From positions 64,001-128,000 of the IMG/VR virus record IMGVR_UViG_2926558313_000004: a DNA stretch of 64,000 nt; one strand, 5' to 3'. The notes beneath the pieces were generated by a model that made no database searches, was not told where the DNA came from, and was given only the letters and a program-made list of their open reading frames with translations. This stretch comes from a virus. Its lineage: Duplodnaviria > Caudoviricetes. Below, piece after piece: positions 15,456 through 22,384 of the stretch. The translations under genes and the position numbers were made by a program. Within the stretch, counting starts at the first letter, position 1, and every line of letters starts with the position of its first letter.

Positions 15456-17669
15456 TTAACTCCTCCATTTGTTTAACTCTTCTTTGCTTGCTATTAATTC
15501 ATATCCCCTATTCCCTTCATGCTTTATCAGCCATCTATCTTCAATTAACTGATGCATTAATTCCTTTATTACTTCTGGTCTTGTTCTCATCTCTTCTCTT
15601 AATTTTCTCGCTCTTACTTCCCCTGTGCTAGCGATAATGCGTTTAATTTTATCCAATGGACTTTCTTCTACTACTTTCGGATTTAAATACCGATTCGATT
15701 TTACATATGAGATAATTTTTTTATATGTTTTTTCTTCCTCATTAGCATTTAAAGAAATTACCGCACTTTGAAATTGCTCAAATGGTTTGATTTGACCTTT
15801 TAACTTCATGACTCCATGCCCACTACCCAATAATTCAAATGGAACACCTGTTCCAAAAACTGTTCTGTATCCAGAAGAGGTTGATAATCTGAAACTAATC
15901 TTAGATGGAATATTGTCTTTAATTATGGTATCAACAATATTTTTATTTGGCTGCTGAGTAGCTATTATTAAATGGATTCCAGAAGCCCTTGCTTTTTGAC
16001 TTATTTTTTGAATACTGTCAACTATTTGGGGATTAGCCATCTTTAAATCTGCGAATTCATCAATTATGATTACGATATATGGAAGAGGATCATGGGGATT
16101 TTTTTGATTATAACTCTTGATGTCTTTAGCACCTCTCTTTTTAAATAATTCATATCTTTTTTCCATTTCTTGAATAACCTCATTCTCCATCTTTAACGAT
16201 GCCTCTTTTGGATCTGTAATTACTGAATTAACGTGAGGAAATTCTTTAAACTGTACTAGTTCTACTTGTTTTGGGTCAATAAGATAAAGATTAAGGCGAC
16301 TAGGTGGAACAAAAAGGAGCATTGTTAAAATAGCTTGATTTAAAAAATTGGATTTTCCTCCTCCTGTCTCACCAGCTATAAGAAGATGGGTTAAAGAAGT
16401 CAAACAACGAAATATCGGTTTACCAAATGAATCGAGTCCGACAAAGAAAGGAATTTCCAACTCTATGAGAGAATTTTGTGTCTTTTTATCAGATAATACT
16501 TCACTGAGATAAATCGCATTCTTGTTTTGTTTGGCAATTAAAAACCCAATGGTGTCAGGTTTATCACCTTGTTCAATTGACAGTGAAGATACTCCAAGTG
16601 ACACCTGAACATCTTCCTTTTTTGCAATAATTTTTGAATAAACTAAGTCTTTTGGTATGAAGTACTGACACCTAATAAAACTAAGACCATCCATTTCATG
16701 ATCTAATTTCATATCTTTTTCACTTTTAATTACACCTATTCTTTTTAATGTTTTTGGTATTTGTAGAGAAATATCTCTATATTCATTATTTATACTTTTA
16801 TTATTGTTCATTGGCAATAGATCAAATATATTGTTTGCGGCATTAACACCCTCCTTTTCTTTGTGCCTCCCTTCTTCAATTATATCTTTTGTGAGTTCTA
16901 TTGTATTGTCGTAAGCCAAGAACGAATTTATCTCATTTCTGCTCAAATATTGTTTTTCATAAAATATTGATGAACCACTTTTAATTTCTTCTATGAAAAA
17001 ACAGTTCATTCCTGACAGTTTTTTGCACGAATATTTTATTAAGTCTTTAATTAATTTTATTTGGCTATTGTTGTTGCTATCGATACCTATCATACATTCA
17101 AAACTATATTGATCATCAATTATTTTCTGCTCAATTTCTTTTATAGGACTTCTAATCTTAGATTTTGCTTTAAGGTTTAATATGTTCCAAATTGACCGAT
17201 AAAAACCACTTTCTATCGCCAACTCATTTCCGGTGATAAAGTGCTCATATTTTTCTATCTCAGTATCTCTCCATGCCCCACTCCTTTTTTTAATCATTAA
17301 TTTAATTATTATTTTATCATTGGGATCAAAAACATGGAGATTACTAAGCAAAGGAGAAATGAGTGAAAGACCATCTTCTACACCTATCGGAAAGAGCGAG
17401 TCTTCTTTCAATTTCAATCGAATCCAGTTGGCAGCATTAATATTAACTCCGTTTACAACTTCACTCAATCCTCTGTTTTTCCAGAAATAAGGAGCATGAA
17501 GGTAAGACTTGCTTTCGTGTTTATTAATTTCCCATATAACTGACACATGTGCCATTTCTAAGTAGTGATTATCAAATAGCTTTTCATGATCTTTAATCAT
17601 GAAATAACCATATGAATATTTTTCTTCGTCGTTCACATTTATAAAATTTGACAATATTTTATTTAGCAC
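15456..17669 (-). CDS. FtsK/SpoIIIE-family ATPase with long unrelated N-terminus
   Basis: HLLIAGETGGGKS, LIDPKQVEL, IIIDEFADL, QKARASGIHLIIATQQP; C-terminal wHTH-like tail. Confidence 0.93.
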   Translation of the reverse strand: MLNKILSNFINVNDEEKYSYGYFMIKDHEKLFDNHYLEMAHVSVIWEINKHESKSYLHAPYFWKNRGLSEVVNGVNINAANWIRLKLKEDSLFPIGVEDGLSLISPLLSNLHVFDPNDKIIIKLMIKKRSGAWRDTEIEKYEHFITGNELAIESGFYRSIWNILNLKAKSKIRSPIKEIEQKIIDDQYSFECMIGIDSNNNSQIKLIKDLIKYSCKKLSGMNCFFIEEIKSGSSIFYEKQYLSRNEINSFLAYDNTIELTKDIIEEGRHKEKEGVNAANNIFDLLPMNNNKSINNEYRDISLQIPKTLKRIGVIKSEKDMKLDHEMDGLSFIRCQYFIPKDLVYSKIIAKKEDVQVSLGVSSLSIEQGDKPDTIGFLIAKQNKNAIYLSEVLSDKKTQNSLIELEIPFFVGLDSFGKPIFRCLTSLTHLLIAGETGGGKSNFLNQAILTMLLFVPPSRLNLYLIDPKQVELVQFKEFPHVNSVITDPKEASLKMENEVIQEMEKRYELFKKRGAKDIKSYNQKNPHDPLPYIVIIIDEFADLKMANPQIVDSIQKISQKARASGIHLIIATQQPNKNIVDTIIKDNIPSKISFRLSTSSGYRTVFGTGVPFELLGSGHGVMKLKGQIKPFEQFQSAVISLNANEEEKTYKKIISYVKSNRYLNPKVVEESPLDKIKRIIASTGEVRARKLREEMRTRPEVIKELMHQLIEDRWLIKHEGNRGYELIASKEELNKWRS

Positions 17670-17682
17670 AATGTCCTCTCCT

Positions 17683-20999: not shown

Positions 21000-22109
21000 T
21001 TATCGTTGGTATCTTGTTAAAATTTCAGTTATTGACCTCTTTTCTTGTGTTTTTTGTTCCTTTTTATTGAATAGTGAAATATCTAAATCGGGTCGATATC
21101 TTTTTTCAGGTTGTAATGTACTTTTAATTCGACTTTCATCGGAATGAATTTTTTGTTCAATTTGCTTTAATCGTGTTTCACACCATGAAAGACCGCTGCA
21201 AATGGTAATTATTTTGCTTGCGCCTGTGGAATAATATCCCTCAAATAAGTTAATTGGCTCCCCAAAGTCAAAATGCCTAAATAGTCTATTTGAATGTGTA
21301 TTGCTTATAGTTTTGGAGTCATAATCAAAGATCACTCCTGCTTTAATCACCTTTTTCATCTCTGGCTCAATATAAATAGAACATAGCCATGACTGCTTAG
21401 TTTTTTCATATATCCATTGTTCATCTTCAAATTTCGATTCTTCGGTAACATTAATGTCTCCAATAATAGCTAACCCGTCAGTGTCAAAGATCGTCAATAA
21501 GTCTCTCTCATCTAAGTTGGATATAGATGATTCTTCTCGTGTGTATTTTAAAAGTTGATGAATTTGGTTTATAAACTTACAATTTATTTCCATATACTTA
21601 GTGTGTTTATTTAGATTACTGTTTGCTTTTTGATTATCTATAGGCAGAATGCACGTTTGTAAATTAGATAATTCTGAAAAAACATCTAGGGTATTAAGTT
21701 GATTAATTGTTACTTCTGTCAGATCAGGTAAAATTGGACAAGCTACGATAACCTTACCTAATTTATGTTTAAGTAATTCAATAATCATTGGACTAGAGCC
21801 AGAACCAGTTCCTCCGCCAGTGGAAAAAGCAATAAAAATTATCTTAATCGAAGGGTGTGAAAACCTCTCTTCTATAAATGAAACCACTCTCTCCCAATTA
21901 AAGTTCATAAGTCGAAGTGCCTCATTTCGATCTCTTCCCACTCCCTCGGAACCAATTAAACAAAGTTTATTTTCATTTTGAATTTCTTTGCAGCCATCTA
22001 AATCTTTTTGACTGAAATTTATTGCTACTGAAGGATACCCTAATTTAGATGCTAAACTCACTACAGAAGTCCCGCCTTGCCCAACTCCTATGAAACCATA
22101 CATGTTCAT
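21000..22109 (-). CDS. tubZ: TubZ-like tubulin/FtsZ-family GTPase
   Basis: GVGQGG (T1), EGVGRD (T3), GGGTGSG tubulin signature, SNLDERD T7-like loop, basic C-terminal tail; resembles clostridial phage c-st TubZ rather than host FtsZ. Confidence 0.88.
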   Translation of the reverse strand: MNMYGFIGVGQGGTSVVSLASKLGYPSVAINFSQKDLDGCKEIQNENKLCLIGSEGVGRDRNEALRLMNFNWERVVSFIEERFSHPSIKIIFIAFSTGGGTGSGSSPMIIELLKHKLGKVIVACPILPDLTEVTINQLNTLDVFSELSNLQTCILPIDNQKANSNLNKHTKYMEINCKFINQIHQLLKYTREESSISNLDERDLLTIFDTDGLAIIGDINVTEESKFEDEQWIYEKTKQSWLCSIYIEPEMKKVIKAGVIFDYDSKTISNTHSNRLFRHFDFGEPINLFEGYYSTGASKIITICSGLSWCETRLKQIEQKIHSDESRIKSTLQPEKRYRPDLDISLFNKKEQKTQEKRSITEILTRYQR

Positions 22110-22384
22110 TCAACCCCTTCTAATGAATAATGAACAGATTTAACTCCGAAATTTGTAATATAAATATCATGAGTCATTTGATTTCTTAAGATTCCAATTA
22201 GCTTTTTTGTTTCTAAAGACATAATTGTTTTATTGAAAGTTGCCTGACTCCAATCAATTTTTTTCTTCAAATCTTTACGTTTAAGTGCTTTAAATGGAGC
22301 ATCGGAATCATGATCCATCAAAATTCCCAGTATCATAATTTCATTATTTGATAAATCAGATGCGATTGCTTCAAAATAATTCAT
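22106..22384 (-). CDS. tubR: TubR-like winged-HTH adaptor
   Basis: Small MarR-like wHTH (…YITNFG) translationally coupled (4-nt overlap) to tubZ. Confidence 0.7.
   Translation of the reverse strand: MNYFEAIASDLSNNEIMILGILMDHDSDAPFKALKRKDLKKKIDWSQATFNKTIMSLETKKLIGILRNQMTHDIYITNFGVKSVHYSLEGVE

Follow-up and report, generated by a model that had tools for sequence, protein, structure and literature searches.

Genes and features of the cassette

The window analysed here is a stretch of 64,000 nucleotides from a virus of the Caudoviricetes (IMG/VR record IMGVR_UViG_2926558313_000004, positions 64,001 to 128,000), and corresponds to G000:C5:64003-128002 in a 4.5-Mb host assembly that is 99.99% complete. 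Between the genes of a RecD2-type helicase (13118-15316) and a YonO-type RNA polymerase (23216-25798) lies a cassette (15456-22384) in which eight co-oriented open reading frames (ORFs) on the minus strand encode a TubR-TubZ partition pair, an M23 peptidase, a regulator, three membrane proteins and an FtsK-type DNA motor. An earlier interpretation made from the letters alone, the sequence-only reading, had listed eight co-oriented genes between the helicases and yonO. This count holds, but a conserved ORF of 55 amino acids (aa) on the plus strand (20133-20300) had been missed. The eight genes, and the repeat array that lies among them, are in the direction of the minus strand:

22106..22384, minus strand: TubR-like winged-helix centromere-binding adaptor, 92 aa (PDB TubR 4asn, E 9.3e-13, residues 2-88)
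21000..22109, minus strand: TubZ GTPase of the tubulin/FtsZ fold, 369 aa (PF00091, Tubulin, 1e-14)
20896..20972, no strand: centromere-like array of five direct GGTAAC copies (plus strand) and one inverted copy that forms a palindrome
20284..20796, minus strand: M23 metallopeptidase, 170 aa (PF01551, 3.1e-27; phrog_7767, 1.9e-50)
19581..19991, minus strand: XRE-type helix-turn-helix (HTH) regulator, 136 aa (HTH_19, 1.9e-5; HTH_26, 5.2e-5)
19267..19509, minus strand: small protein with a single transmembrane (TM) segment, 80 aa, hydrophobic N-terminus
18798..19367, minus strand: pilin-like protein with two TM segments (VirB2/TrbC-like topology), 189 aa (phrog_3528, 6.8e-16)
17683..18765, minus strand: VirB6/TrbL-like polytopic membrane protein, 360 aa (phrog_3750, 4.6e-70)
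15456..17669, minus strand: soluble FtsK/SpoIIIE-type translocase of double-stranded DNA (dsDNA), 737 aa (PF01580, 3.6e-43)

Comparisons between loci cover a set of 20 that was fetched through the VirB6-like gene, namely the window, 13 viral contigs, two bacterial genomes of the same family, and Bastille, 010DV004, Goe14 and 0305phi8-36. Two members of this set (L011 and L012) are the same in sequence.

Partition proteins, repeat array and motor

The identities of TubR and TubZ, both named in the sequence-only reading, are secure by sequence comparison. The Pfam winged HTH (wHTH) matches of the TubR protein are sub-threshold only, and its gene overlaps the start of tubZ; an ORF of 89-99 aa is found directly upstream of tubZ in five of six TubZ loci. 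The best solved relatives of TubZ are 4xcq (E 5e-13) and the TubZ of phage c-st (3v3t, 2.9e-12), and the GGGTGSG nucleotide loop is present in its translation. Among 50,697 phage records, relatives of this TubZ were found only in phage G (32% identity).

The array is located between tubZ and the M23 gene, i.e. downstream of tubZ, where 6 of the 22 GGTAAC sites of the window are packed into 77 bp. None of 100 shuffles gave 22 sites per window. The repeat array of the sequence-only reading is thereby upheld, and we regard it as a putative centromere (tubC-like). To the right of the array (window coordinates 21444-74194), copies of the 7-mer GGTAACA favour the plus strand 9:1, and the 85 kb on its left contain just two. 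A polarity resembling that of FtsK-orienting polar sequences (KOPS) is not interpretable from this skew; gene orientation flips at the same place.

The motor consists of a phage-specific N-domain of about 260 residues, followed by alpha, beta and gamma-like wHTH domains. It matches FtsK in the PDB (2iuu, 3.7e-44) far better than TcpA (6o1w, 6.3e-18), and EssC/EccC proteins are also more distant. A profile alignment (hhalign) of the motor family to a 775-aa FtsK/SpoIIIE protein of the host has a probability of 100% (E 8e-68) and places profile columns 272-749 (window residues 259-733) onto host residues 282-769. The alignment covers the C-terminal gamma winged helix, since it reaches residue 769 of 775, and the N-domain falls outside it. 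The Pfam gamma model itself had no match in the motor at E 0.1, and the best score of the N-domain in the ESM Atlas was 0.85, which is below the useful range. Walker A and Walker B (GKS, DE) are invariant in 13 motor homologues. These alignments place the motor nearer to cellular FtsK, with the TcpA coupling protein more remote. No TM or hydrophobic segment occurs in its 737 residues, so that the N-terminal membrane anchor of the FtsK type is missing, and the predicted architecture is that of a dsDNA pump which would need a separate membrane dock.

Membrane proteins and wall hydrolase

The M23 peptidase, like the FtsK gene, had been correctly named from the letters alone, and its catalytic motifs HxxxD and HxH are present. 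It has no N-terminal signal peptide; its one hydrophobic segment is the C-terminal tail (151-169). The true start of the 80-aa protein is perhaps a TTG three codons in. Homologues of this protein were found in L022 and L023, and in Herelleviridae-type loci a DUF7394 protein fills the same slot.

The pilin-like designation fits one gene only. In the family alignment of the 189-aa protein a long signal-like leader ending in A-x-A is followed by two TM helices. All of its Pfam matches are below cut-off (TrbC, 0.0011, in 1 of 12 members; T4SS_pilin, 0.013, in 1 of 12), as is the pilin-type match of orf204 of 0305phi8-36 (0.00097), and the family has no match in the PDB. The 136-aa gene is ruled out as a pilin by its XRE-type HTH matches.

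For the VirB6-like protein, the earlier assignment was borne out at the level of the family. The window protein by itself has no Pfam match. The family has 116 representatives among 1.84 billion proteins, and of 67 members that were aligned seven match Pfam TrbL_4 (best 3.2e-9) and one matches TrbL; against the PDB, the family profile found TrwI of R388 weakly (E 0.36). An alignment-based AlphaFold2 model reached a predicted local distance difference test (pLDDT) of 82.7, whereas the single-sequence fold (pLDDT 39) was unusable. The top five Foldseek matches of the model are TrwI/VirB6 chains (E 6.7e-3 to 5.3e-2, probability 0.99-1.00, TM-score 0.32-0.49). In the VIA structure alignment, TrwI scored Z 9.6. 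Structure alone is not decisive for the VirB6-like identity, because Legionella DotA ties with TrwI and designed helical repeats score 8.7. The strongest link of the family to TrbL comes from hhalign with a 358-aa protein of genome G429, which is itself a TrbL_4 protein (6.4e-27); the probability is 96.6%, with E 5.7e-10 over 222 columns. Two longer forms of 450-610 aa (P0006 and P0035), considered as fusions of VirB6-like and pilin-like proteins, show no pilin-like similarity (probabilities 1.2% and 0.9%) and look like over-long gene calls.

The G429 gene was found by a class-wide genome search, in a locus (L047) where it lies beside a VirB4-like ATPase and a glucosaminidase-M23 hydrolase, two genes from the latter. 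In L047 (G429:C24) and L048 (G438:C4) the order is VirB4-like ATPase, glucosaminidase-M23 hydrolase, a protein of about 175 aa, and the TrbL_4 protein. Sequence similarity points to this cluster, which resembles a type IV secretion system (T4SS), as the nearest cellular relative of the phage membrane module. No similarity was found between the pilin-like family and the 178-aa neighbour of TrbL_4 in L047.

Absence of VirB4 and relaxase

The sequence-only reading had stated that the cassette contains neither VirB4 nor relaxase. Both are also absent from 19 of the 20 related loci and from the host assembly, as far as the five Pfam models searched can tell, other relaxase families not having been searched. 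The whole host assembly has no AAA_10 or P-loop_TraG match that would reveal a VirB4-type ATPase, no match to Relaxase or Rep_trans, and only a 16-bit match to Replic_Relax on another contig. The VirB4-like protein of L047 has no tblastn match in any cassette locus, and the relaxase orf200 of 0305phi8-36 has none in this genome or in the other 19 loci.

These absences bear on the possibility that the cassette is a minimal conjugation-like machine that pushes phage dsDNA, independently of virions, into a neighbouring cell or a sister cell in a chain or biofilm. The T4SS-derived parts (VirB6-like protein, pilin-like topology, wall hydrolase) in combination with an FtsK-type motor would suit such a machine, and Streptomyces TraB reportedly provides a precedent for relaxase-free transfer of dsDNA. 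Cell-to-cell propagation free of particles has also been proposed in print for 0305phi8-36, in the part of Pathria et al. 2012 available to us (PMC3357382). However, virulent phages that lyse their host within minutes would gain little from it, and the 12 plasmids that carry the core are all typed non-mobilizable. In addition, VirB4 is to our knowledge a part of every described T4SS. We consider this explanation unlikely.

Conservation of the block and exchange of filament genes

The genes that the sequence-only reading had placed in one cassette are conserved together. In 19 of the 20 loci the motor gene directly follows the VirB6-like gene (tblastn), and in 0305phi8-36 the motor slot is taken by a divergent ATPase (orf201). 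The pilin-like gene precedes the VirB6-like gene in 19 of 20. An M23 gene is found in 17, being absent from Bastille, L018 and 0305phi8-36, and a filament gene lies upstream in 18, of which 12 are actin-like (ALP_N) and six are TubZ; L011 and L012 are the two without one. The motor and VirB6-like genes are on the same strand and within 1.5 kb of each other in all 11 phage records common to both match lists, among the matches listed.

A maximum-likelihood tree of the VirB6-like protein (18 rows) was drawn without L009, L012 and L016, which are near-duplicates of L007/L008, L011 and L015, and without L047-L049; the branches of L024 and L046 are very long. On this tree at least three changes of the actin label are required across well-supported branches, and on these grounds partition modules of unrelated folds have been swapped repeatedly while the pump was kept. 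The presence of filament genes of two unrelated folds in one slot argues that the positioning system and the pump belong and work together; the exchange of unrelated filaments around a pump that stayed is the best argument for this.

Arrays with other motifs occur at the same place in four of the five other TubZ loci and in seven of the seven actin-type loci inspected. In the inspected loci with a filament gene, L018 excepted, the interval from the adaptor gene to M23 holds five or six direct repeats of a 6-8-mer, and in most of these arrays an inverted copy follows the direct repeats. Examples of the motifs are GTTACC in the window, GTTTCCC in one TubZ locus and one actin locus, TTTCCC with both filament types, and GTTACTS with the short actin type. 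Despite unrelated adaptors, the motifs of tubulin-, Alp- and short-actin-type cassettes share TT[ATC]CC (window, L003, L006, L007, L010, L013-L015, L017, L022 and L023). One possibility is that a shared part of the block, such as the gamma-like domain (wHTH) of the motor, also reads the arrays; Streptomyces TraB is said to read clt repeats. No obvious co-variation between the repeat motif and the wHTH helix of the motor was seen by eye in the alignment of 13 homologues.

A different view of the same layout is that two unrelated modules are merely adjacent in an accessory island. TubZRC would then only stabilise an episomal phage, and the FtsK and membrane genes would serve membrane-anchored replication, septum clearing, the handling of concatemers or dimers, or DNA exclusion. 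Consistent with this, the annotation of phage G shows no pump gene in the 7 kb flanking TubR-TubZ on each side, and conversely the pump of L011, L012 and a Bacillus cereus plasmid has no filament gene next to it. Islands of non-essential genes are moreover described in the available text of Pathria et al. 2012 (PMC3357382). Yet a filament gene is kept in its slot in 18 of 20 loci despite at least three swaps between unrelated folds, and in every inspected case the block encloses the array, with the filament genes on one side of it and M23 on the other. We hold mere adjacency to be rather improbable.

Distribution

The VirB6-like gene was detected in 162 of 50,697 phage records, 160 of them from Bacillus phages, and none of the 162 is a Staphylococcus, Listeria, Enterococcus or Clostridium phage. 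It was further detected in 12 of 72,556 plasmids (10 from Bacillus; all 12 of 121-364 kb). The carriers thus include virulent Herelleviridae, temperate SPbeta-like phages and large plasmids. Bacterial genomes seldom carry the gene: it was present in 2 of 48 further genomes of the family and in 3 of 400 further genomes drawn from the class, and two of the three matches in the class sample are weak ones in T4SS-like clusters. The 312-kb B. cereus plasmid pBFR_2 (L049, 192.5-197.4 kb) encodes a regulator, a small protein, a 208-aa protein, a VirB6-like protein and FtsK. No filament or M23 gene adjoins the core of this non-mobilizable plasmid.

The presence of the module on plasmids also counts against a role in genome entry, in which a motor and channel made early would pull in the rest of a very long genome after partial injection. 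A membrane-docked dsDNA motor would suit the large genomes concerned (about 125-220 kb) in a general way only. Nothing indicates that the cassette enters first, and deletion of the operon left plaque formation of 0305phi8-36 unimpaired, according to the portion of Pathria et al. 2012 at hand (PMC3357382). A helper of this kind seems highly improbable to us.

Regulatory features and neighbouring genes

The smaller features in and around the cassette are:

20992..21020, minus strand: match to a sigma-A-like promoter (TTAACA-17-TATTAT, agreeing at 10 of 12 consensus positions), immediately upstream of the array and the M23 gene
20133..20300, plus strand: conserved 55-aa ORF, opposite strand, between the regulator and the M23 gene
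19532..19567, minus strand: 20-bp palindrome overlapping the sigmaE-like match TAATAGT-15-AATACACT (19532-19561)
15444..15467, no strand: palindromic, terminator-like hairpin where the FtsK gene ends, marking the 3' edge of the cassette

The region has 28 sigma-A-like matches against a shuffle mean of 37.9, and the site at 20992..21020 is a consensus match only. Beyond the cassette, a promoter-like site for the following gene is found at 15416-15388 (TTGACT-17-TATGAT with TG).

The 55-aa ORF was found by tblastn at the same place and in the same orientation in L022 (2e-18), L023 (2e-8) and L010 (7e-6), with weaker matches in L006 (8e-6), L011 (7e-5) and L018 (5e-3). Given a sub-threshold match to RepL (0.0028), it possibly encodes a small wHTH protein. 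The XRE regulator has homologues in 9 of 20 loci, none of them of the Herelleviridae type. The 55-aa ORF on the plus strand and the regulator gene on the minus strand start back to back, an arrangement seen only in versions outside Herelleviridae, and the pair looks like a small genetic switch within the cassette. The 20-bp palindrome is likely the operator for the adjacent regulator. It is also present in L022, with CATACACT, and a similar site in L010 has CATACAGT.

A sigmaE-like promoter ahead of the membrane genes had been put forward as weak support for a link to sporulation. With the consensus taken as (T/G)(A/C)ATA(A/T)(A/T) and CATACA(A/C)T, as given in the accessible text of a preprint (bioRxiv 10.1101/2020.04.13.040188), a site does exist on the minus strand at 19532-19561, where 6 of 7 and 7 of 8 positions agree. 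It is near-consensus only, its '-35' half falls within the palindrome, and we regard it as weak evidence for sporulation. An exact CATACA is found at the corresponding place, before the membrane genes, in L022 and L010.

The window belongs to a low-GC block (about 31%) that spans from the start of contig C5 to about C5:149,000, after which GC is 44-50%. The block contains phage replication genes, the YonO-type RNA polymerase (phrog_8308, 1e-283) and late genes, which make it an SPbeta-like phage or prophage no shorter than 149 kb. The GC gap between phage and host is unusually large, a block of at least 149 kb at about 31% being set against DNA of 44-50%. A recombinase was not seen at the inspected junction of the two, and near-identical DNA to the window was not found among phage records. 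The genes of the host include sigmaE (442 bits, over cut-off), a pair of FtsK/SpoIIIE paralogues and one for an EssC-like protein, and the host is accordingly predicted to be a spore-former.

The RecD2-type helicase gene directly follows the motor gene in 5 of the 20 loci (window, L006, L017, L022 and L023). In the window (10333-15316) it is followed by genes for an HTH_36 protein and then a UvrD-type helicase, and these three may make up a module for replication that is associated with the cassette. The 222-aa HTH gene downstream (12407-13075) was compared with the relaxase of 0305phi8-36, and no relationship was found. A second M23-like domain (57640-58200) lies inside a 2075-aa ORF of the late region (54490-60717), which is probably a tape-measure or tail lysin protein. 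At the far end of the low-GC block, shortly before the rise in GC to about 50%, a gene encodes a Cas_Csd1 (Cas8c)-like protein (2e-58; L041:8718-10154, i.e. G000:C5 about 146.7-148.2 kb), and an M15 endolysin-like gene adjoins it.

Proposed role of the cassette

The reading that we favour, as plausible though still short of probable, is that the cassette encodes a membrane-docked dsDNA pump which carries the DNA of the element itself through a septum, the forespore being the most plausible destination. Two cooperating modules would be carried by large extrachromosomal replicons of Bacillaceae. The first, a type III partition system (TubR, TubZ and the GGTAAC centromere array), would position the phage genome in the cell. 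The second would be a reduced, conjugation-derived membrane assembly of the M23 wall hydrolase, the 1-TM protein, the pilin-like 2-TM protein and the VirB6/TrbL-like protein, and we infer that it docks the soluble FtsK/SpoIIIE-type motor, which has no anchor of its own. The motor would then pump the dsDNA of the element, without nicking, through a closing or closed septum. The most plausible target would be the asymmetric septum of sporulation, whereby the phage genome would be inherited by the spore.

We favour a septal pump because the motor is of the FtsK/SpoIIIE type and because the carriers are a mixture of virulent phages, temperate phages and non-mobilizable Bacillaceae megaplasmids. 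It is further favoured by the recurrent association with partition systems and by the absence of a phenotype in the laboratory; the harmless deletion of the related operon in 0305phi8-36 agrees with a function other than simple lytic growth. Physical delivery of DNA to the channel by the filament is something we purely infer. A joint scheme, in which a tubulin or actin filament brings the DNA to the channel and the TT[ATC]CC arrays may be at once centromere and loading site for the gamma-like domain of the motor, must be called doubtful.

Several points weigh against the septal pump. The function is deduced from gene content and comparison. All known T4SS need VirB4, which is missing here. The M23 peptidase has no signal peptide, which leaves its route to the wall unexplained. 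The low-GC phage block is contiguous with high-GC host-like DNA, so that in this lysogen inheritance by the spore may not need the cassette, and the SpoIIIE of the host could do the same job. The sporulation clue is also thin. The sigmaE-like motif is clear in only three of eight inspected loci; of these L022 is a close relative, so that its agreement with the window is not independent. The '-35' half sits in what resembles an operator, and the window shows no enrichment of the -10 octamer CATACANT (13 sites, 9.8 expected) or of Spo0A boxes (3 sites, 6 expected). Finally, the absence of Clostridium phages from the 162 carriers makes the range one of Bacillaceae rather than of spore-formers generally.

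How large phage genomes and megaplasmids enter Bacillus spores is an open question, and 'virospores' are under active study. If the septal pump were true, it would represent a new way of moving dsDNA across a septum, using conjugation parts without the VirB4 and relaxase that are thought indispensable, and the tubulin and actin filaments of phages would gain a defined destination for their cargo. More than 160 sequenced Bacillus phages, including biocontrol candidates, carry the module, as do megaplasmids of the B. cereus group.

Earlier descriptions and comparison with known systems

The sequence-only reading had called the system undescribed, and this has to be withdrawn. The block is widespread in Bacillus phages, and a distant relative was described in 2012. 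In the text available to us, Pathria et al. 2012 applied the name "DNA translocation operon" to orf200-207 of 0305phi8-36, a set made up of a relaxase, a soluble coupling ATPase, a VirB6 homologue and an MreB-like protein, and reported that its deletion gave no plaque phenotype and no growth defect in the laboratory (PMC3357382). Parts of the block are mentioned elsewhere, in each case as far as the accessible text goes. Asare et al. 2015 noted SpoIIIE homologues near a plasmid segregation gene in Bastille-like phages (PMC4528723), the announcement of phage Grass listed FtsK/SpoIIIE and ParM with roles unknown (PMC3853049), and a 2022 paper on B. pumilus siphoviruses listed TrbC/VirB2, Replic_Relax, FtsK and a ribbon-helix-helix (RHH) protein as plasmid-type genes (PMC9658697). 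A 2026 ISME J paper on spore entrapment suggested that Par-like genes of SPO1 may aid entrapment (PMC12991052). A description of the tubulin version of the block was not found in the literature, supplementary files, which may list the genes, not being covered.

Among cellular systems, transfer of dsDNA by the TraB/clt/Spd system of Streptomyces is alike in principle. Reportedly, its motor is of the FtsK type and carries a wHTH at the C-terminus, short direct repeats lie close to the gene, the membrane partners are small, and no relaxase takes part. The hosts of the window's type are, in contrast, unicellular spore-formers, and the two are likened by description only. With the T4SS of Gram-positive bacteria (ICEBs1 Con, pCW3 Tcp and L047) the window shares a VirB6/TrbL_4-like protein, a nearby wall hydrolase with an M23 domain and an ATPase of the FtsK superfamily. 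It differs in that no VirB4, relaxase or VirB8-like gene was recognised and in that its motor is nearer to cellular FtsK.

The TubZRC systems of pBtoxis, B. megaterium (TubR 4asn) and Clostridium phage c-st resemble that of the window in having a TubR wHTH protein, a TubZ GTPase and an iteron array. The array usually lies upstream of tubR, whereas in the window it is downstream of tubZ, and here the partition genes share a block with a membrane DNA pump.

The operon of 0305phi8-36 has in common with the window a VirB6-like protein, a soluble translocase, a partition gene, a small adaptor and a 2-TM protein in shared order, and its orf203 is 23.8% identical to the VirB6-like protein of the window (1e-6). 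Along orf200-207 the order is actin-like partition gene, small adaptor, 2-TM protein, VirB6-like protein, a peptide of about 40 aa and soluble translocase. Unlike the other 19 loci and this genome, the operon ends in a Replic_Relax-type relaxase (orf200, 6.2e-5). It further differs from the window in its ATPase, which is divergent and has no Pfam match, in lacking an M23 gene, and in having actin instead of tubulin.

The blocks of Bastille-like Herelleviridae and of the SPbeta-like Goe14 have, like the window, M23, pilin-like, VirB6-like and FtsK genes in order, with 33-45% protein identity. They differ in an Alp-type actin with an RHH-like adaptor, in the DUF7394 protein that occupies the slot of the small TM protein, and in a peptide of 39 aa that precedes the motor; the window in turn has two features that this type does not, the XRE regulator and the ORF on the opposite strand. 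As in the window, the block of Goe14 adjoins yonO.

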